A stretch of DNA of 64,000 nt from contig CM120642.1 of assembly GCA_051362555.1 (NCBI GenBank), positions 18,476,001 to 18,540,000 on the forward strand. Direction: 5' to 3'. Below, one piece after another: positions 6,014 to 56,600 of this stretch (positions are counted from its first letter, which is position 1; each line of letters opens with the position of its first letter). The DNA is from Lingula anatina (Eukaryota; Animalia; Brachiopoda). A model generated the notes under the pieces. That model worked only from the letters and a program-made list of their open reading frames with translations. It was not told where the DNA came from and did not search any database. The position numbers and the translations under genes were made by a program.

Positions 6014-7398
6014 TTACAAGCTCAGATAAAGTTGACCAAGATGGGTAAGCTTTCCGCTGTTGTCAAGGATGCTGGTGGACGAACCAAGGAAGTGACCTTG
6101 GGCATGCTCAAGCCGACTCTCGAACCAGGCATATCGGAAGATGAAGGACGACTTCTCAAGCATGGGCACCGCTGCGCGCATGAAGGACATAATCGGAGCG
6201 ACATTATTGTTTGTGTTGGGGCAGGCGAATTCTGTCAACCATATTGGCTTCTTCACCTGGTTGTGCACGGCGGTCAAGAACCCCATGAGGGAATTGGCGT
6301 TGCAGGTGTAGGAATGGGTGGCCACGTAATCTATACGGCAGCCGAGCTGTTTGCACTTGGCAAAGAACCGGGAGAACCACTCGTTGTACTGCATGCTGCA
6401 TTGGCCCGTCTTGGGATTACAGGGGGCAGCAGCCGGGCTGACCAGTTTGACGCTAGAGGGCACTTGCTTCTGGATTTCCATCCATTTTTCAGCGGCAGTC
6501 TCCGGCATGATGTTAGACTGGGCGTGAAAGTTTGGCTCGTTGAAGCCTGAAGGAGTAAACATGACAAATAAATAAGACCGATAATAAACATTACTAAGTA
6601 ATAAATTAAAATCTAATAGGAAATGACAATCGAAACGATCGAAACTATCATTCTCACGCTGCCTTTACACGGCGCTGTTGACCCCTGACCCGTGGCGCCA
6701 TGTTCTGATGAATAAAGCGGACACCTCATAGTATATTCGAATGAGTGATTGGATAAATAAATGAATCACCTATTTGCACGATATGATAAACAGGTCTATG
6801 ATAAATTGTAAGGTCATTGTGTGATTTTTAGCACATTCTTCTCAAGAATATCATGTGCATGTAATCCACCAAAATAATATCAATGGAAAAAAATCTTACC
6901 TAACAAGTACTTCTCTCCGTGAATTGATGTAATGGAGTTCATGGACCCAAGGCCCCAGATCATTGGGACGTACTCAATGTTCGGGTGGCACTGGTTCTTG
7001 CCGGTGGCTTTCCAATCATACCTGTAGAATACGCGACGAGTTGTGTAAAAGATTGCTTCAAAAATGTACAATAGTGACCACAAAATCCACCACTTTTACC
7101 AACACGGAATGGACAGTTTTATAAGATACAAAGTGCCCAGATTTTTCAAGTGCCAAAACTGTGAACAGTGAGAGCCTCAAGGACTTTTATACCCTGAGCA
7201 TTGTGAACTTGTCAGTGACTTTATGATTTAACCAAATACATCCAAAGATTCACTTTTAACGCTGTTCTTGATAAAAAATATTTTAAATGTCTTTCAAAAT
7301 GTATTTTAGAAATTGCTTTAATGTTTGATATGTTTTTCTTACAATTACTATTTTACTATAATCAAATATTTACCATCCCACTTTTATGTGCAAATAAA

Positions 7399-12237: not shown

Positions 12238-15200
12238 TCATTCCAACAAAGAACACTCTATCTTGTGCCAATCATGGTCTTTAGTAGGTCGCCTACTTGG
12301 AACATAAACCTGAAGCTCTTTGGGGATTGAGGGCTCTCCTTGCCCCTTGGTTTCTCTCACAATAGGTATCACATACGAAGCCTTTCTTGTCAGTCCCTCA
12401 TAAACAGCCTGATGTAGCTCGTATTGCCAGTTAGAGTCCCCTACAGCTTCGTGGGATATCACTACAATGGTCTTCATGCTGTTTGCCATTCCTGCTGTAA
12501 TATTTTCCAACACCTTACTCCCAGGAAGAAAATCCCTGTCGCGGAGACACCCTCTGAACTTCAGGGATACTTCCAGCGTTGTGAGCAGATGGTAACAGAC
12601 CCAGTCTCGGTCGCCGTCAGCATACACTACGTAGAAGTCATTCTCAAGTTCGGCGTTTCTTGCCTGTGCGGGTTGGTCGGGTATGCTGTAGCTGATTTCG
12701 GCAGGGACAGTGATTGAATCACAGACTGAGAGCTCATTTGTGAGAAGGGCGGTGGATTGCTGTGGATCATTTCTTCTAGTAACAGCTAAATTGCAGAAAA
12801 AATGTTAGTATAGAATCTTAAATCCCTGACTGGTTCAAGGTCATACAAATAAAGGTCATGAATGCCCTGTATAAAATTTGGAGGGCAAAAGTAATAATTA
12901 TAATAATAATAATATCATCAAATAAAATATTTAAGTATTATGATAAAGAAAATTAATCTCAAATAGAATAAAGATGTAAATCATCCTGCATATTGTTATC
13001 TGGTCTACAATCATTTAAGAATGATTTACCTCGTTCGGTTTCCTGGTTGACACCGATATATTGACTTGGTGTAATCTTTGCTTCCATAGCAACGGACTGC
13101 AAAGTTTGCATTTTATAGGCTCTCTTTGTTTCATCGACCAGATCTCTATCATCATCTCCCGATTCACGGGGTTTTATAGGGTTTGAAGTGCCTAAGGAAC
13201 TTGGCTTTTGTTCTTCTGTCGGTTTCGCTGCCCCCTTCTCACTCTGTAATAATAGGGTGCTATACTATGAGACTCACTGGTAAAATCTTACAGAACATTA
13301 CCATTAAACAGGATCTCAACTGATAATATTTGAAAGACTTCAAGAGAAGAATTATAAAAAACATAAACAAAATTCAAACTGCAATGTTGTATGTCTTACC
13401 TCTAAGGGAATTTTTCTCAGATGTATAACTAAGATAAATAAATAAAGACAAAGACTACATTAAAAAAATATTTCCTTAATAAAATTCGCATTGAAAGAAA
13501 AATTACCTTTTCTGAGAGGCTGTTTTTCGTCAAATCCAGAAAATCTTTTAAATTCTCCAATTTTTCGACATCTGAGAGCTCTTCTTGCGCGGTGACGTCT
13601 GCCAGGAAAGTCTTAAGTACTTCCGTCAAAAATATAGCTGCATTTCTCTCCATCCCTCTCTCACTCTTCATCAATTCTCCAACGAGACTTTTCAAAACCG
13701 TCGGACTGGTTGGATTTCCGGAGAAAGGATCCCAAAGCAATGTTACCTCCTTTTGCAAGTTTGTTAGTTTAAATTTTGAATAAGCTGTGATAAAACAATA
13801 CTTCAATTCACCTAAGTATTTCTTCCCTTTCTTGCCGTCTCGCTCTTGTACGCATGCTTCATATTTATCCATCAGCAAGTTAACCAACTGTACAAAACTG
13901 AAAAGAAATGTGCTGTTGGCTTGTTGGGTATAGACGGCGTTCTTGAAACTTTCAATTGCGCTTCGATCCTGACCAAGATCTTGAAGACATTTTCCTCTTC
14001 TTTGATGTATATCCGGGCACTTCTCACCCTCCATGTGTTCCACGGCATATTTGAACTGAAAGAGAGATTTTCTCATCATCTTCTCATTGACGACTCGACG
14101 GTTAATATCTATGCCGAGAAAGTGGTACATCTCGGCCAGATTTGCAAAATCGGTTGGAGTCGGGTTAAGACAGACGGCCATTTTGATTTTCTTCTTTGCC
14201 TTTTGTGCCAGCGCCCAATTCAAAACTTCCCCTCTTCTGCCTTCGTTGCTTTTCTCGGCCTGATACCACTGGTTTTTGTACAACAGTCGCAGATTATCCC
14301 CCATGGACTTGAAGGCATACCAGTTGCTTTCCGATGAGTCCAATTCAATGGACTTTTTGTGAAGTTGTTCCGCTTTCTCTCTGCTTTTCTCGTCGCCCTT
14401 TCTCCACAGAAAGTAAGCATATCGGTTCAAAATGTCGGTTCTGTTTGGGGTAAGCTCATTCGCGAGTCTGTAACACTTTTCAGCGTGAGCAAGACATTCT
14501 TCTGGGGAAGCAAAATTTTCTTTATGAACACCGTGGATATGAAGCTCTTTCACAACTGCAGGAACTTTGATAGGGAGTGAACTGTGGTCCGAAGAACTTG
14601 GTTCGCCCATCGGGCTCGCTTCTTCTTTCAAATCTTTCAAAACATTCTCAGATAGTCTCCTTTCCCAGAAACTTTCCAAGAAATCCACGAAATGATTTTG
14701 TTCTGTCTCGTTGTCGGAGTGTCGTTGACTTTGACCTGCATCATGTGATCTTTGTGAAGGTTTTATGTCATACCTATATTTGTTTTTTCTTCCTTTGAGT
14801 AACGCAAAATATTTCCCTCCCAGAACCTTTCCCAGCTGCATCCACGCTTGAGCTTGATAATTGGTATCTGCGATACAAGTGACAGCAAAGAAGAATTTGA
14901 CGATTAACGAAAACGCTATTTCATAATCTATCCCTAACTGAGATCGCGCAATTGGATGTCTACTTATATGTCCTAGATTGCAAGCGATGTCTTTGCACCA
15001 TTCTAAAACTTCACTGTACTCAAAAGCCTCAAAGTTGTCATCCACAATCTTGAGAGCCGTCATGTAAAATTTTTGAGCGCGGATGTTGGCTTGCCCGCTC
15101 ACGTCTTGTCTGGCCTCGACGAACACGTCGTAAGCCAGCATATAGCCTTGCTCGAACAGGCATCTTGCCCGGCTGGTCACCTTTGGCTTACACTCTTCGA

Positions 15201-15491
15201 GCCGTTTTGCGTACTTCCCTGCCTCGCTGGAAAACAAAACCTCGCTGAAGATGAACCCCAAATTGGCTAGGGCATTGAGATTCTCGGCATCAATATCTAG
15301 GACCTCTTCAAATGTTTTCACGCTCTTTTCTATGGCGCCGTCCTGGTACTCGAATACACCCTTTAGGTTCAGCATGACACTTCTGTGGGCCCCGGTCTGC
15401 AACAGCCGCATGTAGTTGTGGATGCTCTTCTTGTATTTCAAGTGTTGCTTGTTGGTCTTTGGGTTGACTTTGAGGTTCAGAATATGAAACC
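12238..15491 (-). CDS. TTC22: TTC22-like TPR protein fused to a C-terminal TIR domain (about 915 aa in resolved exons; first coding exon unresolved)
   Basis: Exons 15491-13507, 13243-13030, 12785-12238 join in frame with GT-AG sites. ENLNALANL, ARCLFEQGYMLAYDV, ILNRYA, SNWYAF and PDIHQRRGKCL match motifs recalled from vertebrate TTC22. Last exon: DFYVVYADGDRDWV...CLRDRDFLPG...KTIVVIS...SNWQYEL...VIPIV = TIR domain. Confidence 0.82.
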
Positions 15492-16978
15492 CTGCCAAGA
15501 AAAAATTATGAGATAAAACAATAGTTTTTTCAGGTCACAAATATAATCCCCAGACTAGTTATGTTTCCTTGGGTTTTCTTAAAGCGACTTAACGTAAAGC
15601 TGACACGAACCATGGAATTGCGGATTGTGTTTTGGGCTTTATAAAAAGTATTATTTCATTAATATAAAAAGTTTCATATCACTTGTAATAAAGTAGCACA
15701 ATACGTAATACATAATATCCACGAGAAAATTATATGAATGATGTAAAAAAAAAAAAGATGAAACAAATAGATAAATAATACGACTGCATTTCGAACTCAG
15801 AGACAGTGAATACTTTAATTCATTATGTAGTTTTGTGCGAGACTTATAGGCACTTGCTGGCCCAGACATATGCATATACGCTCTTTGCTAAAAAGTTTGT
15901 GCCATCTTTAGTCCTATGTGCTTTTGTTTACAAATGATCAGATGACAGCTTTTAACTGTTTTAAATAGTGGTTGTAATATGTTATTGTTTAGTGCTTTTG
16001 ATGTGGTAAAATGACATTACGAAGCTGATGTTATTTTACATGACTGCACATCTTAACTAGTAAAAAAGAATGCGGATAATCTATTTTTAAAAATTACATA
16101 ATGAGGAAAAATTCAAAGCAGGCCGACCATGTTGAGACAAGAGATCATTATACAATATTCTTTATCCTATTAATATATATTTATATATATATCTGATAGT
16201 TTAGAGTCAGCCTCTATAACTCACTGAATATACAACCACAAGTAGGATGTGCTTCATGGGTACTGGGTACTGACTTAATCTTATAAATTCTCTGCCCTGC
16301 ATTTTAACGCAAATGTGTTAGAGAAGCTGGACCAAATAAGTAATTGTGTTGAAGTGATAATACTATGAAGTATCTTAACATACGTCCTATTGATATTACA
16401 GCCAATCCTGCCAGAAAATCGTTCACTGATTATCGTTGTTTTTTTTTTCCTGGTTGGAATCAATATTCAAGGTGCGATAGAAAAAGAAAAAAACAATGAA
16501 AAAGAATGTTTAGACAGAGGGATGTCGATGCTTTTGCAGGTAGGGCCAGGTATGTGGATTTAGAACTTACTGGTATAGCAAGTAATGGAAGTACGATCAA
16601 ATGTTTAAGGACATCGGGAAATTCCGCTTATTGCGTCTTTTGGCGTTAACATCCCGGTTAGTGTCAAAGACGCAGAGAGCAGGAGTGGAAAATTTAACAT
16701 GATATACATACTGTTTATTCAGTCAACAGTATAGGCTTCCGAATTCCTAAAAATGAAAAAAACTTAGCCAGTAGGATTGACTCACTTTTGTTTGTGCAAA
16801 TAACTGTTACAGAAAGGGACGCAACAACTGAACGCGGCTGAACTCAAGAAGTCACTTGTACAGAGTGTTAACAGTGGAATGACCGATATTAAGAGATTTT
16901 AAAGACCAATGACCCTGGCGAAGGAGGGGGGGGGGGGGTTCACACCGTATCTCTCTTTTTCCGCCATTGATAAACTAA

Positions 16979-17178: not shown

Positions 17179-19747
17179 GTAAAACAGGCTCGTAGGCAGG
17201 AAGAAGGTCGGCGGCGCGGGGGGGGGGGGGGGGGGGGATTTAAGAAAAGCTGCCAGAATAAGTCCACTATAAATAAAAAATTGACCTAGAATCAATGCCA
17301 TTTCTCAGGTTGAGTAAGTAGATAACGAGGATAAAAGTTCAGGTCCACACTTTCAGAAAAGACTCCCCCTCTCCCGAACTTTGAAATTACTGGTTATAGG
17401 AATGTAAGGTTGTATTACCATTAGACGTACTTGTGTATATGACAGCCAGTCCGGGGCTGAGGCCTACAGTTGGGCCAATGCAGTTACTGTCAAGTGCCAT
17501 AAACTCGATCCATTTATAACCTGCACATACCGACTTAAGAATAATTTGTTAGTTTGATGATTATGTGATTTTGGTATTGCGTAAGCAGGAGTCGTCATAT
17601 TCTAGCTGTGGTGTTGATGGTGGGAAAACACATAATCATTAAAGGTGGGGAAAGTAGAGCGCCTCTATACACTCTGAAGCGATATTTATTGACCATCATT
17701 AAATGACGTAAGCCCTCAATTCCAAGTCTTTTATTTCAACTAAGCGTCATCATTAATCTTCAACATGTGAAGGGTAACAGGAGCCTCAGCTTTGATCTTT
17801 GAAATACTTAACATCAAAGTTCAAAAGATAAGAATCCTGATTCAGCTAACTGTCTCAGGTTAACAGTTTCATTTTCGATGTGACCTAAATATAACGCAAA
17901 TTGCTCTATATGGCGACTCACTATTCATATTGTATTAATTGCATGGATCAACTACATGTCTAGCCTGGAATTTATATTGTTGCTTGCGTTGCCCATGTGG
18001 TATTTCTGTGACATTTGATGCTAACTTGGGCTTGTTCAGTGGTTTATTAGTCGTCCAGCCAATGTTTGTGAATTTCTTTCATTCTCTGCTGAAGTAGAAA
18101 CAGTTCTTTGTAGGTGTACATTGTTCAGACAAGTAATTTATTCAATCTGAGTCGGGCTTGAGCGCGCGACACGTAATACGTGTCAATAGAAGTTTATAGC
18201 TCTTAATTTAAGTTAATCTCTTTTCTTATCTTATCTCCTTTAATTATAGTAAAGTCTCAATAAAGATGCAAGTCTGTCACGCAAAGTTAGGTATAAAATC
18301 AGGCTGCGACCTGGCAATAAACGAGTTTTGATTTTTGTAACTAAACAGTGGTGTTGCGTTACTCTTCTCTCCGGGCATAACCCAAGTCGGGAATCGCGTA
18401 CCGTACCTAGAATCTTTCAACGGTGGATTAGAGCCCCTAGCGTCTAGATTATACCCGCGGTATATCGAAGAACTTAGTACAACATGTACCATGCTTTTGC
18501 TGTATAGACAGGCCCGTAACTTGGGGGGGGGGGGGGGGCTGGGTTCGAAAGAACCCCCTACTTAGATGGGAAAAGGTCCCCTCTAGAAAAAAAATCTAGG
18601 TACGCGAAGGTTACATGGTAAAAGGACCACTTTTTCAGCAAAAGAACCCCCCCCCCACCCCATTGAAATTGCATACAGATTGCACGTCTAGAAAAAAAAT
18701 CTTATCTTTGTTTATTCCATTCATATTTGTGTTACACTTTGCGTGAATATAGCTTCCAGCGGTCCATTAATGTTAACTACATGTGATACGTTACTAACCT
18801 GGTTCAATTTCTTCCATTTTGCAGTTTTACTTGGAAACAACTGGTAGATAAACCTCTTCTGGAAAGAAGAGTTAAAACGTACAAGAAAACGCAGAATTTT
18901 ATTCACTGAACGATTATTCGACGTACGAGTGGTTCGTCGCTAAATGTACGATAAAATGTAGACATGCTATCTGGCACAACATGTTTCTCATAGACTCGCA
19001 AATGCACCAAATATGCATATTTACCATTACCCACGCGTGTGCATATTCCTATGAAACCAATCACAATACTTAATACTTCCTCTAGCTTACCTTACTCGGT
19101 TTGGTTCTGTTATCTACCTGCATGCATAGCAGCTATGGAAGGCTTATATGGCATAAAGCAATGTCTGTTATTGGTCCACTTCCAATTGAAATAATCATCC
19201 AATAGATGGCGATACCAGTTGCTATTAAATTTTGTCCCTAATCTATGTAATAAGTATAACTTTTCATAAATAAAAAATTTGAAAAATTTGACAAAGTGGA
19301 CACCAGAAAACGAATAAAATTAATTGCAAAAAGTTTATAATCACAAAGTGTACATTTAAGCCGACATAATTTAATCTAATTTCGATCGGTTTTTGCAATG
19401 GGACATATAGCCAGTAAAGCCCTTATGTCCAAATGTGTCAGTGACACTAAAGCTGGGATGAATTTGTGTTTGCGAAAAATACACGCATTTATCTCCACAT
19501 ATTACATTAAGTGTTGTTTGTTTTTTAAGTCACCGATGACGTAATGAAACACAATTTTTCATGCAGGCAGACCTCAATACAGAAAACGTGCTCCACGTTA
19601 TTACCGTAGTACGTGCGTGTCAGACAGTCGACTGGACTGTAGCCGTAGCTGTAGAACGGAGCCAGTGTAGTGCAGGAATTCCTTGTCTGAGTGGTGCAAG
19701 TGTACATACCGTCAGACTAATATACGTAAAGCGTATATAGAGAGATA

Positions 19748-19825
19748 TGTGCGCGCGTGTGTGTGTGTGTGTGTTTGAGAGAGAGAGAGTGAGAGAGAGA
19801 GGGATGTGTGTGTGTGTGTGTGTGC

Positions 19826-19897
<72 letters not shown>
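19748..19897. repeat. Compound (TG)n/(AG)n microsatellite
   Basis: Read directly. Confidence 0.92.
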
Positions 19898-19898
<1 letters not shown>

Positions 19899-20990
19899 GG
19901 GGGTAGGCATATGGCGGTATGGGGTTGGAGGGGAGATAAGTAGGGTTGACAAAGAAGGTGTATGTGTGTGTGAAAGAAATTTAGATAGAAAGACACGTAC
20001 ATTATACATGTACGTGTCAAACTTAAATTCAGACCCCATTACAGCTGCATAAAGGATCTGGTTTCAATAAAGTACTAATTTTACATTTTAACTTTCTCAA
20101 CACTCATCTATTTACAATGGTCGGGTGAAGTGTGCGTACTTTGTTCGATAGCTGGCAAGCTAAAAGCTTGCCGAGATAAAGCAGTAAAAGCACATTCTGA
20201 GACTGTTTATAATACCACCATTTACTGGTTACTCAACTGTTTATGAAAACACGAGAAAATGCCATCGAACAATGATGTAGCGACACAACATGGCACAAGG
20301 GGGCATGCGAAAGAAAATTGGTTGAAAAACAGGCGCTGGAAGCATAAATATTAGCCGAGTTGATACATGTAGTATCCTATTTAAAGACAAATTTTCGATC
20401 GAATTCACAGTTTTGTTATTTATGGGCAGTACTTGCCTGCGCATTCGAATTTAAAGAATAGGAATTACATACAGTATGTGTATAACCTGATTAGCTTGGT
20501 GGGTACATGTTATCTATGACATCAAAGCGGTTTTGTGTCCCTTTCTTAAAACAAATGGGCTGAATCCACATAATCTAACTCCCCCCCACCCCAATATCCT
20601 CCAATATCCATCTATGATAAAACTGTTTATCTGTGATTCGAACTATATATATACAGCAGTGTTTAAAAATTAGAGGAATCCATTTTTTTCTTTTTTTTCT
20701 ACTTTTCTCATCCCTGAACACCATCATATCCTTTCGGCATTGAAGACGTGGAAGACAGTAGAATTAGACACATGATATATGGGTTGTATACTCTGTCAAC
20801 ACTATGGGTTTCCGAACCGCGAAAGAGTTTTTCCGGATAAATAAAAAGGGATTGATTGAGGACGTTATGCTAGTACAAGTAACAAAAGAGGAAGATCGCG
20901 TTTAAATGAGACAAAAAATTCGCCGCGTGGAATAAAATAGAGATTTAATTGTTAAAAAAGTGAAATGAAAAACATTACTTTTAACTTCTT

Positions 20991-35664: not shown

Positions 35665-36377
35665 GTAAGTGTTTTCTTTTTCAATCAGTTTAATAATAAT
35701 TTTAGACTAAATCTGTGTCTCTAAAATTATGTTATTTGTAACGAAAAAAATGTAAATTGTATATTATTTTTCACGAAAAAATGTACATATTTTAAACGGA
35801 ATATTTATACTTTAAGATGCGTTGAATTCGAATATATAAGGCATTTAGTTTCTCAGTTATTATGAGAAGTTACTGAATGAAGACGTACATAAACAATATA
35901 CGTTCATCCTTTTCTAAGATATTGCAATTGAGTAAATTAAAAATTCAATTCGCGACAGAAATGGTGTAAACTTAAAAAATTGTGCACTTAAATAAACTTG
36001 GAAACTGTGAAGTGAAAAAAATCAAAAGCATGCTGTGAAACAAAATAACATTAGGAAATAAACCAGATGCAGCGTGACAAGGTAAACTATCCAGAACAAA
36101 AGTGCCTCGAAATGTTACAGCAAGTAATGTTTAGTAAATAGTTTTTTCTGGTTTTCTCGAATGAACGATGTCTGGAACTTGTATCAGTTTCATGACCTTG
36201 AAGTGCCTTGTTAGCATAAAGTAGAACCTTTAAAAATAGCAAATACACTCAACTTCTCTTTTTTCTCGTCTGTCGATAGCATTTCTAGTGTTTGATTTAT
36301 TGGGTATAAAGGTTTGCCACAAAGCTACTTCAAGGACTACCTTTTAAAATATATAAAATATTTTTTATTTCTCCCAG

Positions 36378-38249
36378 ATGTACGGTAGGCGCGGAGATCA
36401 CTTTCTTGTCGGCGAATTCGGTGGCTACGAATTTGGGGATTTCGGAGGAGGAGGCGATAATGATGTAAAAGACCCATCTGGAATCACCACTACAGGAAGC
36501 GTGACCAGCGATACACCCACGACTTCCGCCACTAGCATCTTCTCGCCATCAGCGGCATATACAGGAAATCCGCAAGCAGTGACGAGGTCGAGATTATCTG
36601 ACATTCTGACCCAAGTTGTCACGGGTCGTCCAGATACTGTCCCAGTTCATTCCACAATCAATAAAAACATTTTACAGTCAGAGAGACCAGATTCTTACGA
36701 TATTTTCAGCACTGCGGCGAGGACAGGAAATATAGATACCACTACCTCAACAACAACGGGATCGGATAAACCCATCACTGATGTCTTTACCAGGACATAC
36801 GAACTCATTTCTAGCCATACTACAGACTTAGTCACACATTTAAACACTTCAGTCACAGCGCACAGTGGCAGCCAAGCACAAACACCAGAGAGAAATTTTA
36901 CTTCTCATACAAACATATTTGAACTTTTCAATTCAACAAATATTTCATGGTCAGAGCTACCTGAAACGGATTTTCGCATGTGTCTAGGATGTACACATAT
37001 CATTCATGACATTGTTCTTCCTGTCGTCATAGCTATTGGAATTCTAGGAAACGCAGCAGCGTTTTTGGTTTTGATGAGGAGAATATTCCGGTTGTCTGCT
37101 ACAGCGCGTCTCCTGATTGGTCTAACAGCGTCTGCTTTCTTGCATTGTGTCATTGAAGTTCCTCATCTTCTGTGCAGTGATAAAAGTCTGTATGCTTCGG
37201 AAGGTTTCCAGGTTTTCTACAGGCATTATCTCATCGCAAGGTATGTGTTTATCGCCGCACTGACGAGTGTTTAAATACATTTTATTATGATATTTGTTTT
37301 CATTTTATTAAATTACCTAATTGTACAGAAATAAGTACTGGTCAGTTTTAATATTTCCGTTAGTTTGTAAATTTTAATTTATACATTTGCGGTTTTGATA
37401 AAAATACGTCTTTTTATGCGCTGCACTTATCATAAAAATATAACTACTTAATTGCTGACTACTTACGCTCATCCTTATTCTTCCATTTTCAGGAATGCAT
37501 TGAACCCAATCTTGCTGTCAGCTGTCACCTGTCTGACTGTCGCTGTCGTCTTGGAAAGGTTCCTGTCTCTTCGTTACCCCTTTTCTCCGTCCATGCACTC
37601 TACCGTCCCAGAAGCCAGTAAGACAATTCTTGGGGTATTTGTGGCCGTCACGCTGTTCCATTTGTCTAAGTGCTTTGAGTACGCACCAAACCCTGATCTG
37701 TCGTCTGCGGAACCCCTGATTGCGACAGAGCTGCTTCGGATTGCAGCTTACAAGATATTCCGCCAGTACGTCAACACGACTCTCACGGTCACCCTTCCAT
37801 ACGTCGTTTTGTTTGTGCTATTAGTATTGTTGGTCATCGCCATTTCAAACTTTAGATCTCAGTGTAAAAAATCATTCATAGGACAATCGTCTACCGGAGA
37901 TGCGAGTCACATGACGTCAGGGGTGGTTGCTATGGCAACCATGTTTCTACTGTGTAATTCTCTCAGCTTGTATTTAGCTACAAATATCACAGTTTATGGC
38001 AGCGAAAAGACATTTTCAAGCAGCCTGAATGTTGAACTGAAAGAATTATCTGAAGTTATGATATTTGTTTACATGTCGCTCCCGTTTATCTTGTTTTGCG
38101 CCATCTGTCGGAACTTTAGAAAAGCTACCTGCTGCTGTGGGTCCAGTAATTCAGTGGGATTTTCTACCGACGTCTCCCAGAAAAATTCCCGATCAAACAG
38201 TACATTCACTGGTATTGGGGTGTCGAATTGTAGTCTAGATTTTGTGTGA
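36378..38249 (+). CDS. Class A (rhodopsin-like) GPCR, FMRFamide-receptor-like, with long Ser/Thr-rich N-terminus, 539 aa
   Basis: Exons 36378-37240 and 37493-38249 join in phase 2 (1620 nt). Seven hydrophobic segments; TM1 GILGN, TM3 LERFLSLRYP, TM5 TLPYVVL, TM6 MFLLCN, helix 8 CRNFRK. Confidence 0.85.
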
Positions 38250-38935: not shown

Positions 38936-40506
38936 GTGTCGGTAATCAAATGTTATAGAAGTGAAATATCATGTCTTAATGGCTCAGAACTTTCCAAACA
39001 ATCATCTAAAGTTGCTGTGGCAGTATTGAAATAATTTTCAATAAAATATATAAACTAAATCAATTTTCTGATGAGTGCAGTACGGGCATGTTAGTTTCTT
39101 AGTACAAAAATATTATCAATGATGTGAAAAAAGATGTATAAGGAGTAGGGTTGATTTGAAAAGTAGAACCGAGTTCCACATTATTCACATTGGTGTTGTT
39201 TCAAGACATTTTCATTTTTATATCAACAAAATGCGAAGGATGTTGCATCTATCAAAAGCATCATCTCTTAAACACAAATTGGTTTACACAGTAAGATAGC
39301 ACCCTCTACCACGGCGGCAGCTTAATTCCATATTTTTTCTTCGAATCGTGCCATGAATTAGCCAAAAACATACTAATATGTATAATACTGACCTTTTCCC
39401 ACCAAAAAGGGTGTCTTTCGAACGCCCCCCCCCCCCCCACACACACACACACACACACATTTCACAGTGTCATATCCCGACACAAATTTTGAGATGAGAT
39501 GCACTACTTTCCAACCTCGCTCAGAATCATCGCTATATCACATCGTGTACTAGGCAAGGGCGGTGTTGGGTCTGGTACTTCGAAGCGCTTACTGATACAC
39601 ACCTTGAAAACGAGTAGTGAAAACGATCTACCTGTGAATTCAGGATCATTCGGTGCCGAGTCTGGTAGTTGGGTAGGCTCTTGTGGGCCATGGCAATCTT
39701 TTACAGGTGAAATCGCCGATTCTTTATGATATTTCTCGTACATATCTCATGTTTACTTTGAAAAAAAGTGTTTTTATAAAAAAAGAAATAAAACTGAAAA
39801 ACAGATACGGTCAACAAAATATTAACATGTGAAGGCATTTGAGAGGCATTTCGTATAATTAGAAGGCATTGATCGATCGTCAAACATCTGTGTAAATTTT
39901 GCTTTAGGAATTCAGTTCAGGTACAGTGTAGTTGGCGATGCAGTTCCACATAGTGTCGATTTCACTTACGTTCATGAAAAACCCCAATATAACCACTGCA
40001 TCTCTACTATCTTAAAATCGATGTATGAATCCATCTCACATATGAATAGGAGTCCACATTTACCGATAACAGGCTAAAAAAGGGATAAATAAAAAATAAA
40101 ACGTAGAGAAAAAGAAAAAAAAAGAATAAAAACATTGAAACGTCATGACACCCACGTGAAAATCCTTCATAAAAAAGGTAATAATTTCAATAATTACCCA
40201 AACGCTCAGTGAAATAAAGTACGAAAATAATGAAAATCATTCAATATCATAATCACATCAGCCTCATACGACGAAGGAGATTGCCTTTACATGAAATCAT
40301 CTTATTACCTGATATATCTCGACTGACTTGGTTATCAACGTCAGTCATTAATGTATTAACTTAAACAGTTAATTGACTTCAAAACAGGACGCCGGCTTGA
40401 TAAACGTTTCCTGTAATATGCTGTAATGTTTATTACCACTCTAGAAATAATCCATGCCTATAACTGACTAATGTATTACATAATTTTTTCTACCAACAGT
40501 AAACAC

Positions 40507-40595
40507 TATAAATACATAGTACAGAAACCGGGATAAATTGGTCTCTGACTTCAGCGAAAGCATTTCAGAAATACTGGCCGACATTCTTTGTCAAG
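40507..40595 (+). promoter_or_regulatory. TATA box and non-coding first exon of the small Cys-rich peptide gene
   Basis: TATAAATA at 40507-40514; AAG|GTAAGT donor at 40595/40596; CAG acceptor at 40836-40838, five bases before the ATG. Confidence 0.72.
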
Positions 40596-40843
40596 GTAAG
40601 TCCTGGCTGAACTTATGATATGGTAAAGCAAATTAACGTACGGTGAGTGCCATTTTAGTAAAATACAAGGAAGTGAGTTTTTTATAATCAAATACAGAAC
40701 CAGAAGGGGAAAGCAATAGTCGACAGTATTATAACACGGAAAATGAAAGCCCACACGGTTTCAATGAATGTTTTTAGCCTTTAAAGCTCTTGGAAAAGTT
40801 CCGCTGGTGTAAATTAATTATTTCTTATCTTATCACAGACAAG

Positions 40844-41290
40844 ATGAACAAGCTGCTGGTTGCGTTGGTGGTTCTTGTAGCGGTTGCCGCCATACAAGTG
40901 GCAGACGCTGCCCCAGGGGTGGTTCTCGAACGCTTTACAGATCTTCAAAACAAAGAGGCTTCGTGGATTAATCAGGTATCTCCTCTATACATAACACGTT
41001 ACTAAAGCATCAATTCACTGCAAGAATGCATGTCTATATACACCGTGCTTTCCAGAATTTAAATTAATAGTTTATATATTGGTTATGTATGTAAACAATA
41101 TATTACCAACACAGATGTGGCAAACTTTTTAATATTCATATTTGAAATGAATATGCATGTATATATGAAAATACCTTTATAAAACTGTTATGTTCTACTT
41201 TCTGTTTGCTTTCAGGGGATAAAGAAACGTGCATATAGGTGTGGTTGTGATCCATCTTGCTACAGTAAATGTGGCAGGTATTGTTGCTAA
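40844..41290 (+). CDS. 68-aa prepropeptide: signal peptide, propeptide, KKR site, mature six-Cys peptide AYRCGCDPSCYSKCGRYCC (defensin/conotoxin-like architecture)
   Basis: Exon 40844-40975 (MNKLLVALVVLVAVAAIQVADAAPGVVLERFTDLQNKEASWINQ, CAG|GT) splices in phase 0 to 41216-41290 (TTTCTGTTTGCTTTCAG|GGG ATA AAG AAA CGT GCA TAT AGG TGT GGT TGT GAT CCA TCT TGC TAC AGT AAA TGT GGC AGG TAT TGT TGC TAA). Confidence 0.86.
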
Positions 41291-41368
41291 ACAGAGCCGA
41301 AATGTATCGAAACCTGTTAAATTTGGCAAAAATTGGCTGTAGCAGCATACATGAATGAATACAAGTAA

Positions 41369-41374
41369 AATAAA
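41369..41374 (+). terminator. Polyadenylation signal of the peptide gene
   Basis: AATAAA about 80 nt after the stop codon. Confidence 0.55.
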
Positions 41375-41782
41375 AGACGTGTTATGAAGTAAAGTATATA
41401 CCGACTATTTTCATCATGGATAAACAAGCTTTATACTGTATTCGATGAAAAAATCTAAATCGATGTTTAGTTGCCAAATAAAAGGTGATTAAAATTAAAT
41501 CAAATTAAAGCCAAATTTCATTTGTAATGTTAAGGCTGTATCTTTTAACCAGAAAAATGAAAGGTACATGTATGTTTGGTCATTTCCCTAGAATAATAAG
41601 CAGTACTAAGATATACTGTATATGCAATCCATCTAATCGCCGCACATTAATGAACTGAGCTTGTGTTCCCGCCGAAGACGCCGCAGCAAGAGCTCTTTCA
41701 AATCTGGTCTTAAATGCAAGTCAACATATGCTGTATAGGCCTATATTAAGTGATGATTTTGGTTTTGATCAACTTTTATCTG

Positions 41783-42594: not shown

Positions 42595-44187
42595 TCATAT
42601 CAAAATATAAATGCCTATGGGAAGAACTGTCCATGTGAATAGCACGTTAACACCAGTATTATAAAGGACTGATACGTTAACAGCTTTAACGCTTTGCCAT
42701 TCCGTCCAATGACCACGATGATGTAAACACACTGACCTATGACTGACCAGTAGTGGACCATACCCCGGCCACGGTTCAAACCCTGTCCCTATCCGCCAAT
42801 ATAGAACATTACTCAAGTACAGCCTTGACAAGTCCAAACATTTATATCTGGCGCGGCAGCTATTTGTTAACGTCGCCATGACAACGTGGCCTCGTGCTCC
42901 TCTATGAGAAGGGAAAGCTATGTATTCCAGTACGCCATATGTCAGTATGCTGAAAGCGTGGGCGGTTATATTGACAACTTCGCCATCCTCTGCCTCCCAC
43001 ATACCTGAATATTGATCCGCAAAGGTACCAAATCTGGTTATTTTATTGAACGTATTGTTGCAGTGCCCACAATGCTTGAGGCAACGGTGCCCGGCAGGAC
43101 CTATCGGGCCCATATCACAGACAGATTTATCATCACATTGTCTATCGTCTTTGCAAGCTGTTGTTTGAATGGTCATTTGTTTGGCCAAATGCAACGAAAC
43201 AAATAGAGGGTTCATTTTTTGGTCGCCTGTTGAATACGTCGGGTCGAAAAGAGCACCTTTTATCAGAAGAGCTGGGAAGTTGTTGTCCGCGTTTGACGTG
43301 AACCTTAATGTCAAGACGTTTTTATTGATATTGGTTTGTATAAGTATAAAAATGAACCTCCCTGTATTCAAATAACCTAAGCACGTCCCTAACACTGTGC
43401 TGCAGTAAGGATGGTAAACCACATCGCTCAGTTGGCAAACTTCTTCCCTAAAATCCAACGCAACTGGTTCGCCTGGTAGGCAGCCTGCTTCCAGGATAAG
43501 AGATTCACATTCTTTTACACGATAGGCGACGCTTTCCCCATATACCGTCTTCCTGAACATGGTACTGAGAACACTCGCGAAGGACATCAAGTAAGCTCCG
43601 TCAAGGGGACATTTGACCTCGTATTGCCTCATCTCCTTCCAGGTTTCGAAGTGTCGAACCAAAGGCCACGTGACAGTCTGAAGACGCTCGTCGTCACAAA
43701 TGTCATTTCCCGGGTGACCTTTTAGAAAATGCCTGGATGATATTCTCAATTGTATCACACCCATACTTATATTAATGAACTGGAAACAACTGTAGGCAGA
43801 CATGTTCAGTGTATTTATATATTCACTAAGAATATACTTCTGCCCGTCTACGTCGGTGGCGTTTTCCTCCCCGGTCACTTGGCTGTTGCATGTTAAAATA
43901 TAAGGGGTAATCTCTTCTGTACTATTGACCATATTTGTCGGACGAATCGATTCTCCTGTCATTGCAGTTTCATTAAAAATTACCTCGGTTCCTGGACTTG
44001 GAGCGCCGTATTGGGATGTGGTGGTAGAGCTACTAGGTATATCCCCTGTCACGAATCCTGCATGCCATCTTTTGGCCTCCCATACTGTACTGGGAAAAGA
44101 GCACCGCTTCACTACACTGGTTGTGTGCTTGCCAGTCGTTTGTAGAATTATCATGCTGAATAACCATGCCAATGAATTGCTTGGCAT
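42595..44187 (-). CDS. Intronless 530-aa Cys-rich secreted/GPI-type protein with an ShKT-like module
   Basis: Single long ORF; ATG at 44187 starts a hydrophobic leader (MPSNSLAWLFSMIILQ); hydrophobic C-terminus (VLFTWTVLPIGIYILI); CKDDRQC-DDKSVC-x11-CLKHCGHC fits ShKT spacing; repeated CSFP..W / CPLDGAY / F...YSGMW starts suggest three beta-rich modules. Confidence 0.75.
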   Translation of the reverse strand: MPSNSLAWLFSMIILQTTGKHTTSVVKRCSFPSTVWEAKRWHAGFVTGDIPSSSTTTSQYGAPSPGTEVIFNETAMTGESIRPTNMVNSTEEITPYILTCNSQVTGEENATDVDGQKYILSEYINTLNMSAYSCFQFINISMGVIQLRISSRHFLKGHPGNDICDDERLQTVTWPLVRHFETWKEMRQYEVKCPLDGAYLMSFASVLSTMFRKTVYGESVAYRVKECESLILEAGCLPGEPVALDFREEVCQLSDVVYHPYCSTVLGTCLGYLNTGRFIFILIQTNINKNVLTLRFTSNADNNFPALLIKGALFDPTYSTGDQKMNPLFVSLHLAKQMTIQTTACKDDRQCDDKSVCDMGPIGPAGHRCLKHCGHCNNTFNKITRFGTFADQYSGMWEAEDGEVVNITAHAFSILTYGVLEYIAFPSHRGARGHVVMATLTNSCRARYKCLDLSRLYLSNVLYWRIGTGFEPWPGYGPLLVSHRSVCLHHRGHWTEWQSVKAVNVSVLYNTGVNVLFTWTVLPIGIYILI

Positions 44188-44782
44188 TGCTCCGATATAC
44201 TTATTCCTTTCCAACAAAGAAAATGGATTTCAAATCGAAAGCCTTGTCAGCAACACATGAACATGATTAGTCCACGACAGAACAAACAGAGGTTAAAAGC
44301 ATCTGGATGATTTTTATTACATTTCTCAATACTTAACTTGCTGCAGGAATAAATGATTCAGGCGATCGTTCCCCTGGGTTTAATTAAGCCGCCGAACTAA
44401 ATTTATTTATAATGCATCAAAGTCTACTCGAAATATCTGGCGATTTCGTGTAAGGAGGGCATTACATGTACACATTCCTTTTCATCGATTGATACGTCAC
44501 AACCATCCTGGATTAACAATGAACAATCGGTAAACCACGTATATAACCAGTGCAACTACAGCTGATGCAGAAAGTCCCTTTACACTAGATTACGGCTTCG
44601 TTAACGCTGTATGCAGTTTGCAAAACTTTAACAGTAACGAATGGTACATGTTTTTAAATGCTTTTTTATAGTTTTTTAAACATCGCAAACTATTAATCAA
44701 TTTACAATAAAATTTTTTTCAATATTTCACAACCAAAAAGAGATTTCATTGAATTGTTTACATACTTCATAGCAATAATTAA

Positions 44783-45270: not shown

Positions 45271-48200
45271 TTATTTCCAAAACAAGACCGTTACAATGAC
45301 TAGCGCCAAAACTCTGGTCAGCTCACGCACTATGCTACGGACATTGTATCCATGCCCGGCACTCGTTTTCTGCTCGGAAGTCAGTACGTCTCCTTCGTTA
45401 CACCCATCTTTGTTGCACGTGCGCCAAGTTAGCTCAGCATTGAAATATGCTCCGGCCCTTTGCTTTAAACTCTTGATAGATTTTGGAACGAACTGGAAGA
45501 AACTTAAGCCGTCTTTGTCACTGAGGGTTTGAATCTGGTCACGTAAGTGTAGTCCCGCACATTGCCGCTTTATCATGGTTATCTCTAAGTTCTCCTCCTG
45601 AAAAATGTTGGTGTTATTATGAACGTGATTTAAAACAAAATCATATCATTAACTATATGGAAGTGTTCCTTGAGTTAGTTATCGTGATGATGCTTAATTG
45701 GCCTTGGTCAAAGCATAAAAGAGATACATATACTACATGTATGGTACACATGTACCTCTACAGCCTTTGTTCATTAGTACATACTGTATGTCAAATTCCA
45801 AATCAGCTTTTCACATTTTGAATAACATGAACGGTTTGCATACGTTTGTGTATATTTTGATCAAATACATGTACGTACTTTTTTCCAGTGGTCTGGTGCC
45901 TGTGTAACGAAAATGAGGATACGTTTAACAGAAAGTCCGCCATCCATTTAGTTATTATGGTAAGGGTAAGCCTGACGTAAGTGAGTCAAAATCTAGGGCG
46001 AGGCGGACTCTCTATCATGGGGGACTCTAGGTGTCACGTTACACCGGTATTGTTTGAGTTTCAATTTAACTTTATGGCGTATTTTCACACTTTTAAATCT
46101 CAGGTGAAACTAAAGGCGACGAATGGATAAAAAAAGCAAATTGAATTTTAAATAAAATTGAGTTCTTTGATACAATCATTCCTGCATGAGAAACACTCCA
46201 TTTTTCCTCAAATAAAACTATACTTCATGTTTGTCAACATCTTTATTAAATCTTGTAAAGCTAGAAAACAAACAGACTATTATTTTTACTTTATTTCTAT
46301 TTTTCATTATTTTATTTAATTATTATTGTTTTTAATTTTCATCATTATTATTTTTTAATGATTACTATTATTATTATTTTGCATTTAACATTCCCCGAGA
46401 AGCAATGCGCTGGCATATTTCATAAGAAAAGGACTCTCTGAGCAGAATGGTCTGGTCACGTGACGGGGTGTCCTAGTCACGTGCCACACCGGCTTTGGGC
46501 CTCATTGATCCAGAAGATAAATGAATAAGCCTATAAACAAGAAAATTCAATCTGCGCTGAAGAGCACATTCAGAACTGCGGACAAACAGTTCTGCGGATC
46601 AGATATGGTTGTCACACTCGAATGCTTGTTGCGTAATCCCCGCGGGATTAATTTGATCCGCCGATATGTTGGTCCGCTGTTCTGAATACGCTCTAACTCA
46701 CCGGTTTGGGGTACTTGTTGATAGACATATTTGCTTTAAACTCCAGCACGAGACAGGAGCCAGCACACTGCACGAGTGGGGTGTTAGCTGTGTCATTCAC
46801 ACACTCCACATCGAGACCAGCACTGGCTGGATTTATCTGGTCGTACTGCCGCTGAGACTCGGGGTCTGAGGAATTGTACTCCATCCACATACATTCATGG
46901 CACTGCGTTTCTGGGACTGAAATATGAAAAGATTTATTAAACTAAGCTCCACTTGCACCCGGGCGCTGTGTGTACCGTACATATGTGGGTACATGCATTG
47001 TAAATTGTAGATTTTTAAAATAATTTTTATAAATTAGCGATATCACAAAAAGAGTTGAACAATGAGTGGCTAAAACCATTATATTATATTATATTATATT
47101 ATATTATATTATATTATATTATATTATATTATATTATATTATATTATATTATATTATATTATGCATTTGCTAAGATATAACCTGCGTGAGCAGACACTTG
47201 CCACTCGAGTTGGCATTTGGCAAATGCAGCTAAGCTATTTTAAATGAAGAGCCCAGACTGACATTTATTAACCAAGATAAGGTGCTTTTTTTCGTTGGGT
47301 AATCTTTCGAACAGATATTCCAACAAGATAGATAGTTTGGATAAGGCCATATATCCGCCAACGCCAAAACACCGTGATGCAAACTGGCCTCTAATTCATT
47401 ATTTTTTCTATATAAGAAACGTTGCTTTTTAATGTATTCGAATAACTGCATGTATTTTTTCTATGTATTCTACACTTGCTTTGTTACTGTTGCTGATGTA
47501 ATGAGTAAATTTTCATGCATGTGTTTTCGAGCACGCACATGTTCATGTTTGTATACCAACGGCGGTTCCGGGAGGGAGGATACAGTGAGTCTCGTGTTCT
47601 CTTTAAAATTCTCAGGGACAGGTGCCCCTTTTCCCCTCCAAAAAAGAAGTAGATCAAGCTAAACGAGATAAAATCAACAAATTATCCCATGTATCCCTTG
47701 CATATTATAATTAAATTGTTTTCGTTTGTTTTATATGTTATAACTTACATGTACATATAACGAGACAAGCTGACCCCCATCCCCCCCCCCCCCCCCCCCC
47801 CCCCCCGGCACCACCCGCCAGGGCATACCTTACCTTGAACAACAGGAGTCGACAAGTCTTGTCCGTTACAGCTATCGGAGTTGCAGGCACAGATAGACCC
47901 ATTCAAATTTCCCATTATTTTAATAGCGTAGCCGCCCTTCAAAGTGTAATCCAAGATTTCCTGGAGGCTTTTCTGGCCAGGGCTCGTGGTGTTGCTGTCC
48001 TTGGGGTCACTGGACACGGAACTACACCCCTCATTTTGACTGGCAACGGGACTGCAACCCCGGTAGGTAATGGTGACTGGCGAATCTTGCTAAAAGCGAA
48101 CATAGCTAAGACTGTTGAAGTTGGAATATGTGTAACCATCTTAGGCCGAATTCAGGGTCAAATATGGCGACCCACTAAAAAGCTTGCCGTGTAATCCGCT

Positions 48201-53609: not shown

Positions 53610-56600
53610 CTACCAATAAAAATTTGTTAAAACGACAAACACAGTCAACATCATAACCACCCGTGGATAAAAAGAGCAACTGCTGACCGCCGATGTCAAT
53701 GACACCCGACTAAAGTCATTACAACTGTGGCTGTCGCAGGTACAAATACTAGCCACGGCTCCAGTAAAAGTGAAATCATTGTCTTCCATCCTCTCAACTG
53801 GCAATAATTGTTTGACGACTGGCTCGCTGCCAGAAATATCTTGGCAGTGAGAAGACGGCGTTGTTTTGATACCGGTGCAATATCGGTTCACCAAGTAAAG
53901 ATCCGCGTTTTTGGTTCCTCCAAAATGTCGTGCTTTCTACAACATAAAAATATAGTTAAAAGGATGTGAAGTTGAAAAGGACGTGATTGTGACTCTGTGA
54001 TAAAATGTGAATCCCCATGACTTTACTGGTCCACTAATGAGGCACGTACACTGTAAATAATTTGAATGACCTTGAATTGCATAAAACAGGACCGGTTATA
54101 CTTTTACTACTGATATACTAGGCTGTAACAAAGGTACACTAAATAAGACGATTTCCCAATAATTAAAACCAATTTCATCAATCAAAATTTAAATAATTAG
54201 TTAATAAATTGACTATGGAATGAAAAGAAAATGTATGAAATACAAGAAAAAACAAAAAAACTGCGTAAAATGTTGTTACGGTCGGTCCTAGCTCTGCTGC
54301 GACGTGCCCATTAAATTATGAATTATTATGGGCGAAATTGGATTGCAGAGAACAAATATCCTTTATATGCATAAAAACTGACAAAATGGTTTCTCATATT
54401 TTATCAAAATATATCTCATGTAAATAACTGAATAAGTAAATTAATGAAAAAAAATATATATATAAGGAATAATAATAAAAATCTAAGGACAAGAATAAAA
54501 AGTAATGAATAAGCACATCAGATAACATGTTCTTACTGTTGTTAACTGTACTCTGATTTCCGTGCTCTCACACGCGCCGTTACACATGGAGGACGGCGTC
54601 GCGTGCGTTACTACCCTGCAATTCTCGTCGTGTCTCGTAGCGTTTCTCGAACCAAACTTTGCCTGCAAGTCTCTCTCCAAAACGGTGTCATCGGATGAAT
54701 ATTTCATCCATAAACAGTCATGGCATAAGCGGAGCTTTCCTGGAAGAGTTAATTATTCACACGTTACTCTTAATTTTCCCTGTTTTCCTTATTTACAAAC
54801 ATATTACCTAGTCTCTTACTAATATATATATATTAAAAGGAATTCTTTAACAATTATTTGTAGGCTGCTTTGTATTTCAAAAATCATGTTGAAGGACTCC
54901 TCTACAAGAGACACGATAAGCCATCTTAATGTAAAAAATATATGAGTAATATATTACCGAACACAATCTAGACCGTAGTTTACCTCTCTCTAACGTGTCC
55001 AATAATGTAGTGTCTTCATTGCACCTATCAGAGTTGCAGTAACAAACTTTACCAGTGCGTGCTGTGCCCTCTAAACCAATCATAAAGAGAACATTAAGAT
55101 ACTGTAGGACACTTGGCAATGCGTTTGCAGACAGCTGCTTGCATCCCGATCTGGCGCTTTTTATAGGATTGCAGGTTCGCAGAAAAAAGTGTACTTCCAT
55201 TGGTTCGGACTTCTGGAGCGAATTCATTTGGTCCTAGGAGAACGAAGAAAATAGCCGTAACCCCATTAACATTGTTCAAAGGCTGAAAAAAGCAATAACA
55301 GTGGAAATGATACAATTATACTCTGCATTTCTGGTATTTCACAATCATCAGTGGATATAGATTTGAAACACAAACAGAACAACAAAAAATCTCACCTAGC
55401 ACATTCATTTATACCGCATAGTAAGGTAATTGCCAGTTTTGTTGCAATGCAATACTTGACTTGGTAGCAGCCTGTGAAACCTGCTGTAAGCTAAATGTTC
55501 TTAGTTCAATGAATACATATAATGCAAGCTTACTGAGGGAGAGAAAGATTTTATCTTATATACTGCACGCTTTGAAAAACAACAGCTGTATATCAAAAAA
55601 TGTACACGAGTAACAGGCAGGGCAGGGGATACAGCTCCATTAAGCACACCAGCTGTTGGAATGCAGAATCCTGCAGCGTTTTCCACTTGAGATGCTAAAT
55701 TAACTGCTACTGCAGTAGTCTTTTGTATCCGTGAGGTTACCTACTCTTCGGCTGACTGTTTGGTCTGATAGATCTCAAGTCTGTATCCCACAAAGACAAT
55801 TAGAAATTTCATCACAACCTCACTTGAGTTCATTTACATTTTACCGGTACACCAAAAACAAAAAAGAATTCACAATTACACTGCGTAGAGAGTGCCCGCT
55901 AAAGTTAACGCACTCACCAGGCTCATGCAAACTTACATTTCATACATACAATACGGATCTGGGATTATTCGAAGGGGGGTGCGGGTATTTTTTTTAGTTT
56001 TAGGAATGAAAGGCCTCGGATGCAAAGCCGACCCTCTCCCCCATGGCGTGGGGTTAGGACCCGCACAAGCCCCCATCCCCACCCCCACCCCCACCCCCGA
56101 AAAATGTTGATGCTGGAGGGCAAACGGTGCTTTTTGGTGCGGATTAAGATTTTGATTCAGCTAGTCAAAATACTAAATTTAATTTTTTTCCAATTCGATA
56201 ACCAAAGGGGGGGGGGAGGACACCCCCCCTCCCCGCCACTGCATTTACATGTACCTGTCGGGCAATCCTCGCCGTAAACGTACTCTGTATACACGAGCCA
56301 TCGCATGACACGGTTCTGGCTACCTCGGTCGGGTTTCTGGCACAATCGGAGTCATACCAAGCCGCAAACTGTTTGTCTAACCGGTCCTTCGTCCCCATGT
56401 CCTTGCCGGTTATTTGGTAAGCAATGCAAGAGATACATTCCAAAGTCTCGACTGAAAAAAAAACCCTTAATATTTAGACACCAAATATATGGTTCTCCAA
56501 CAGCATGAGGAATCATGTTATTATGACCTCAAAAACATGCACTGTTGTTCGAAATATGTTTTTCAGTTGCTATGGCATGCGGTAACTGTCTGACATCACA

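Follow-up and report, generated by a model that had tools for sequence, protein, structure and literature searches.

A spliced orphan gene predicted to encode a secreted six-cysteine mini-peptide in the brachiopod Lingula anatina

Introduction

Precursors in which a signal peptide, a propeptide and a basic cleavage site lead to a cysteine-rich C-terminal peptide, with that peptide on the last exon of a gene of two to three exons, are familiar from the alpha-defensins and hepcidin. Alpha-defensins start with C-x-C and end in CC; they are mammalian peptides of 29–35 residues with an anionic propiece and loops much longer than those of the peptide described here. Hepcidin has eight cysteines.

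A comparable layout is seen in the MgCRP-I peptides of Mytilus. In these (PMC4558851) the signal peptide is followed by a short pro-region that closes with a basic site for convertase cleavage, and then by a six-cysteine mature peptide with the array C(X3-6)C(X1-7)CC(X3-4)C(X3-5)C. Their genes, with four exons and with coding introns in phases 1 and 2, make up a large multigene family that is known from mussels only and is hypervariable in the mature region, and synthetic MgCRP-I peptides are reported to have no antimicrobial, antifungal or insecticidal activity (PMC4558851).

Trissin, an arthropod cysteine-rich neuropeptide, is the ligand of the trissin GPCR (PMC7179676). The ancestral pterygote trissin has the pattern C-x2-C-x3-C-x3-C-x7-CC followed by a four-residue tail, 27 residues in all; the peptide is non-amidated, is flanked by RKR (sometimes KKR) and is encoded by a single-copy gene with a precursor of 88–117 residues (PMC7179676). 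Thiel et al. (2021) call the lophotrochozoan orthologues of the trissin receptors orphan; in their supplement, brachiopods, nemerteans and molluscs are scored as having receptors of the trissin type, and phoronids and annelids as lacking them. Our literature search found no paper on a lophotrochozoan trissin ligand.

Here we describe a gene from Lingula anatina with a related layout. It lies in a stretch of 64,000 nucleotides (contig CM120642.1 of assembly GCA_051362555.1, positions 18,476,001 to 18,540,000), the whole of which is called the window below; coordinates are those of the window. The gene had been proposed in a sequence-only reading of this DNA. The gene, an orphan not listed before, is predicted to encode a secreted six-cysteine mini-peptide by way of a precursor of familiar layout.

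Gene structure and expression

The gene is a compact three-exon unit on the plus strand of the Lingula anatina window (40508–41389), and all of the features given in this section lie on that strand. A TATA box, TATAAATA, was read in the sequence at 40508–40515. Exon 1 (40549–40595) is a non-coding 5' UTR, delimited by RNA depth and junction reads; its 5' end is approximate and may lie slightly earlier. The donor of exon 1 reads GTAAGT directly after 40595, and intron 1 (40596–40838, 243 bases, GT..AG), placed by the joint table of reads and by its donor and acceptor letters, closes with a polypyrimidine tract and CAG ahead of the start of exon 2 at 40839. Exon 2 (40839–40975) supplies five more UTR bases, the start codon at 40844, the predicted signal peptide of 22 codons (40844–40909) and the first 22 codons of the propeptide (40910–40975). 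The ATG at 40844 is the first of the transcript, with an A at −3, and the 5' UTR holds no upstream ATG. The donor CAG/GTATCT after 40975 opens intron 2 (40976–41215, 240 bases, GT..AG, phase 0), and the acceptor TTTGCTTTCAG/GGG places the opening of exon 3 at 41216. The coding part of exon 3 (41216–41290) encodes Gly-Ile, then Lys-Lys-Arg (41222–41230) and the 19-residue peptide (41231–41287), and ends with the stop codon TAA (41288–41290). Within the 3' UTR (41291–41389) an AATAAA signal lies at 41369–41374, and molecules end close behind it, at 41376 and 41389.

Raw reads of four RNA-seq runs from three studies were compared with positions 40300–41600. The oligo-dT run, X20, gave 1492 reads on this stretch among 11,053,536 records read, all of them confined to the three exons. 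Two reads came from X14 (12,427,783 records read), both across the first junction, and two from X17 (9,506,110 records read), both in the 3' UTR; X15 (12,366,745 records read) gave none. The first junction, 40595/40839, is crossed by 449 X20 reads with 63 start places, besides the two from X14, and the second, 40975/41216, by 518 X20 reads with 127 start places; each has GT..AG borders. Expression in X20 amounts to about 135 reads per million on an mRNA of about 0.37 kb. The transcript is thus abundant in one sample and nearly silent in the three others. Reads with clipped ends at 40564 match the window over 40549–40563 save for one SNP and a 1-base deletion, so transcription starts no later than about 40549, which is roughly 35 bases past the TATA box.

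Transcription and splicing thus follow the sequence-only reading to the letter. The TATA box, the non-coding exon, the exon for signal and propeptide, the peptide exon and the AATAAA all lie where they had been placed, the coordinates and counts are right throughout, and both introns are GT..AG. RNA-seq reads over the second junction had been named as a check on the model, and all 518 of the X20 reads counted there use the acceptor at 41216.

Some details of the X20 reads differ from this simple picture. Four reads run from the exon-2 donor (40975) into at least 30 foreign bases, and a 30-base tail taken from beyond that donor had no match in the window with up to three mismatches allowed. The tail may derive from a rare alternative last exon beyond the window, from the transcript of a paralogue or from a chimera. 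In the 3' UTR the X20 allele has three SNPs, and a 6-base insertion is found in 48 of 219 reads. On our reading of the consensus of clipped ends over 41347–41357, a change of G to A at 41357 makes another AATAAA, which would lie upstream of the reference signal by about 15 bases. The depth of X20 reads drops about tenfold over the same interval, which suggests either allele-specific earlier polyadenylation or loss of mapping.

Conservation of the frame and the predicted precursor

The X20 reads are mostly 95–99% like the window, and the differences, listed at 11 places, provide a measure of selection on the frame. Five fall in the coding part (40861, 40900, 40924, 40933 and 41248), and all five are synonymous third-position changes, four of them in exon 2 and one in the peptide exon (TGT to TGC at 41248). 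The remaining six, together with two indels, are all in the UTRs. Of the 612 single-base changes that the 68-codon frame allows, only 140 are synonymous; if changes were random, five out of five would have a probability of about 0.0006, or of about 0.004 with transitions only counted. It follows that the frame is under purifying selection, in the exon for signal and propeptide as well as in the peptide exon.

A cysteine-dense stretch is, on its own, not beyond chance in DNA of this kind. The real window has five matches with at least six cysteines in 20 residues, which lie at three places, and 20 shuffles of it gave between none and four each, with an average of about 0.5. It is the joint occurrence of splicing, a signal-like N-terminus and variation that is synonymous only that exceeds chance. 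Other cysteine-dense matches in the window stem from a long (TG/CA)n plus (TC/GA)n microsatellite at 19620–20063, which yields Cys-Val and His-Thr repeat frames. A further open frame of 62 codons, at 55425–55613 on the plus strand, opens with six cysteines in 20 residues; it has no in-frame start codon or signal peptide and is probably due to chance.

The joined frame encodes 68 residues, which divide into a predicted signal peptide of 22, a propeptide of 27 and a mature peptide of 19. The signal-like N-terminus, assigned by the (−3,−1) rule only, consists of MNK, a hydrophobic core of 14 residues and A-D-A ahead of the cut, with a GRAVY value of 1.96. The tribasic KKR stands immediately ahead of the cysteine-rich part. 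The predicted 19-mer has six cysteines in the spacing C-x-C-x3-C-x3-C-x3-CC, with the stop codon directly after the final CC, and three tyrosines; its computed pI is 8.3, its computed charge at pH 7 is +1.7, and its computed monoisotopic mass with all six cysteines oxidised is 2130.73 Da. The division 22/27/19 with KKR, the spacing and the three tyrosines agree with the sequence-only reading, which had put the charge at about +2 against the +1.7 computed here. A structure prediction by AlphaFold2 was uninformative, with a mean pLDDT of 53.7; its input was an exon-3 open frame of 35 residues, 11 of which are intron-encoded and bring in an extra cysteine.

Search for related sequences

The precursor was compared by a word-index search with a collection of 5.8 billion proteins that includes the Lingula RefSeq proteins. 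Six candidates (lengths 37–119) were returned for the full precursor and 396 (lengths 78–2000) for the product of exon 2, none of them with an E of 10 or better. A full HMMER pass over 1,835,955,588 representative proteins gave no match at an E of 0.001 or better. Pfam assigned no family to exon 3, and for exon 2 its one match, to a lipoprotein signal, fell below the threshold (E 0.27, 12.2 bits, with the cut-off at 20); among PDB sequences there was a single chance match, to a nanobody (E 4.6). Neither the Pfam nor the PDB sequence search gave a match to an alpha-defensin or hepcidin.

The peptide's own sequence is absent from collections in which the neighbouring Lingula proteins are present, which indicates that such collections miss small split genes and makes the blanks weak evidence. 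By the same token the gene is unannotated in the collection that holds those neighbours. Being short and split, it escapes annotation based on open reading frames as well as annotation based on proteins.

Metagenome DNA was searched with a degenerate form of the pattern, [KR]-[RS]-x3-CxCx3Cx3Cx3CC-stop/Trp, which gave at least 123 matches in at least 118 loci. Among the matches listed, 77 have a true stop, 35 have no internal stop and two have exactly six cysteines; most of the others listed are TGY repeats. Both six-cysteine matches were taken as chance. One (L047) sits within a dehydrogenase-like gene but in a different frame, and the other (L111) overlaps a longer same-strand open frame in another frame and opposite-strand open frames as well.

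Four fragments of the peptide are printed in none of the papers searched, and a set of four is likewise absent from the supplement on the neuropeptidomes of brachiopods, phoronids and nemerteans (PMC8557429), whose 3.87 million characters include Lingula precursors. A search of the literature on Lingula cysteine-rich or antimicrobial peptides found nothing relevant.

The absence of a clear match to a described peptide family, on which the claim of novelty had been made to depend, is borne out by the protein, Pfam and PDB searches and by the literature. The cysteine spacing, which the sequence-only reading had not recognised, likewise occurs in no paper or database searched. As to a new peptide family, the searches speak for novelty, having given no clear match to a described family, but the word family does not yet apply, as one gene is known, no second copy was found within the 64-kb window by pattern, tblastn or blastn, and the searches beyond it gave no relative. 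The suggested choice of an antimicrobial, toxin or signalling role is a three-way guess. Paralogues elsewhere in the Lingula genome are possible.

Comparison with MgCRP-I (PMC4558851) shows a shared plan and different particulars. The precursor layout is alike, the first exon is non-coding in both, the last exon holds the cleavage site, the peptide and the 3' UTR together, and both are orphan and taxonomically restricted. The cysteine arrays differ, however, C-x-C-x3-C-x3-C-x3-CC in Lingula against C-C-CC-C-C in MgCRP-I, and so do the exons, three with one phase-0 coding intron in Lingula against four with phase-1 and phase-2 introns in the mussel genes.

The order C-C-C-C-CC is shared with conotoxin framework XXV (as25a) and with the centipede families SLPTX 7 and SLPTX 20, which were compared on order alone (PMC4278219, PMC4379518). 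Those peptides come from the venom glands of cone snails and of centipedes (PMC4278219, PMC4379518); the present host is a brachiopod. A conotoxin-superfamily signal was not seen, the Lingula exon for signal and propeptide having no relative in the protein searches. The earlier comparison with framework XXV thus holds as far as cysteine order goes; a resemblance to trissin, taken up below, had been missed.

Possible processing and function

The gene is transcribed from a TATA promoter, both introns are removed, the transcript is polyadenylated and the frame is kept by purifying selection; from this we infer that the 68-codon frame is translated. General knowledge of the secretory pathway suggests that the 68-residue product would enter the ER co-translationally and that the signal would be cut after Ala22, with small residues at −3 and −1. 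Going by convertase specificity, a furin- or prohormone-convertase-type enzyme would then cut after Lys-Lys-Arg, and the six cysteines would oxidise to three disulfides, leaving a very compact secreted 19-mer. We consider this chain of processing, up to the secreted disulfide-rich peptide, highly likely. At 19 residues the product would rank among the smallest three-disulfide scaffolds encoded by animal genes, it would be easy to synthesise, and its transcript is among the more abundant of one sample despite having escaped annotation.

The 19-mer may act outside the cell, in defence or as an effector against microbes or other organisms. This is a guess from base rates: most small six-cysteine secreted invertebrate peptides of such a layout are defence or toxin-like. 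Very high and sample-restricted expression is consistent with such a role, and so is the mild cationic charge (+1.7, pI 8.3), even if +1.7 is a low charge for an antimicrobial peptide that acts on membranes. Genes for defence and toxin peptides are often clustered, but no tandem paralogue was found in the 64 kb. The layout matches that of the effector-like MgCRP-I genes; since the synthetic MgCRP-I peptides are reported inactive (PMC4558851), however, layout does not predict activity. The variation observed here is synonymous only and not diversifying as in the mature regions of MgCRP-I (PMC4558851), and a single copy combined with conservation suits a neuropeptide or hormone no less well, or even better. 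We favour a defence or effector role, as against signalling, tentatively and with somewhat less than even confidence, and the explanation taken whole, with the role included, is put forward at the same strength. If it is right, the peptide would be the first lineage-specific defence peptide of a brachiopod among those that our searches brought up.

The same processed 19-mer could instead be an endogenous signalling ligand, a neuropeptide or hormone, and in its sharpest form this explanation makes it a brachiopod counterpart of trissin. We regard a signalling role as only slightly less likely than one in defence. The single copy within the window and the five out of five synonymous coding differences agree with it, while a level of about 135 reads per million would seem high, for a bulk sample, if the product were a neuropeptide in an animal with a diffuse nervous system. 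Trissin and the Lingula peptide have in common the cysteine order C-C-C-C-CC, second and third loops of three residues, a glycine after the fourth cysteine, an adjoining tribasic site and the lack of amidation, and the single copy of trissin has its parallel in Lingula within the window only (PMC7179676). The loops of trissin are 2/3/3/7 residues long (PMC7179676) and those of the Lingula peptide 1/3/3/3, so that the first and the fourth differ. Trissin continues for four residues after CC, whereas in Lingula the stop codon follows directly (PMC7179676). The order of the precursor is also reversed: trissin comes directly behind the signal, with RKR and the C-terminal remainder of the precursor after it (PMC7179676), unlike the Lingula peptide, which is preceded by a 27-residue propeptide including KKR and ends the precursor. 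The pass over 1,835,955,588 representatives, a library in which the presence of trissins is unconfirmed, gave no match to trissin precursors at an E of 0.001 or better, and indeed no statistical similarity to anything among these 1.84 billion sequences. In favour of a trissin counterpart, the lophotrochozoan receptors are orphan and are scored as present in brachiopods (Thiel et al. 2021), and the literature searched yielded no lophotrochozoan ligand for them. The class A GPCR next to the peptide gene (see below) is generic or Srw-like and, judged by eye, lacks the TM2 motif common to the trissin receptors printed in the supplement of Thiel et al. (2021).

The trissin interpretation is attractive, but with a peptide of only 19 residues and no statistical similarity it must be rated low. 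That the 19-mer is the missing ligand of the orphan trissin-type receptors of brachiopods, nemerteans and molluscs seems to us improbable, and the shortened trissin, shifted to the C-terminus of its precursor, that this would entail is a correspondingly long shot. Were it true, this would be the first trissin outside the arthropods, and any role as a ligand would give the orphan peptide receptors of lophotrochozoans a concrete candidate partner.

A structural or material role is unlikely. The 19-mer would here be a component of mucus, pedicle cement, chaetae or shell matrix, its cysteines and tyrosines serving for cross-linking, and three tyrosines and six cysteines in 19 residues would suit this, as would expression that is very high in one sample and about nil in three, which is usual for products of secretory tissue. 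A processed peptide of 19 residues is very small for a matrix component, however, propeptides that carry a convertase site are characteristic of bioactive peptides, and the precursor has no repeats, no low-complexity sequence and no relative among the proteins searched. It is very improbable that the transcript is a non-coding RNA with a chance 68-codon frame, for although the protein is absent from the 5.8-billion-protein collection with its Lingula RefSeq entries and shuffled windows yield about 0.5 chance cysteine-dense frames each, all five coding differences are synonymous, the frame begins at the first ATG and is kept across a phase-0 intron, its opening is signal-like and the tribasic site stands exactly ahead of the cysteine block.

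Genomic context

Neighbouring genes were typed by Pfam on long open frames. The window is brachiopod DNA, as follows from a gene for a TPR-plus-TIR protein on the minus strand (12238–15534), whose 701-residue frame (13429–15534) is 100% identical to 'uncharacterized protein LOC106153060 [Lingula anatina]'. This protein has two Lingula paralogues at 35–36% identity and so belongs to an expanded TIR-adaptor-like family. Two exons with the C-terminal half of a Glyco_hydro_cc catalytic core lie in tandem on the minus strand (456–1049 and 6014–6664; Pfam E 1e-39 and 3e-42) and represent a local gene duplication. A sulfotransferase, and PAN and fn3 exons, were also identified in the window by Pfam.

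The peptide gene lies between a GPCR gene and a gene for a DUF7043 protein. The former (36357–38249, plus strand, 2.3 kb upstream) has two exons and encodes a class A receptor whose long N-terminal part is rich in Ser/Thr; Pfam classes the receptor as Srw-like, the ESM Atlas as generic rhodopsin-family. A functional link between the peptide gene and this receptor was considered and rejected, the receptor being generic class A or Srw-like. The DUF7043 gene (42595–44229, minus strand) is situated just downstream, and its family is mollusc-rich. Farther along, three open frames on the minus strand (45271–45645, 47745–48089 and 54877–55233) each carry a cysteine-rich segment that ends in a C-N-x-D-x-C-N-like motif. 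They gave no Pfam match at an E of 0.01 or better; the ending of the segments is reminiscent of Ly6/uPAR three-finger domains, and the three frames may form a small cluster of genes for short secreted or GPI-anchored proteins.
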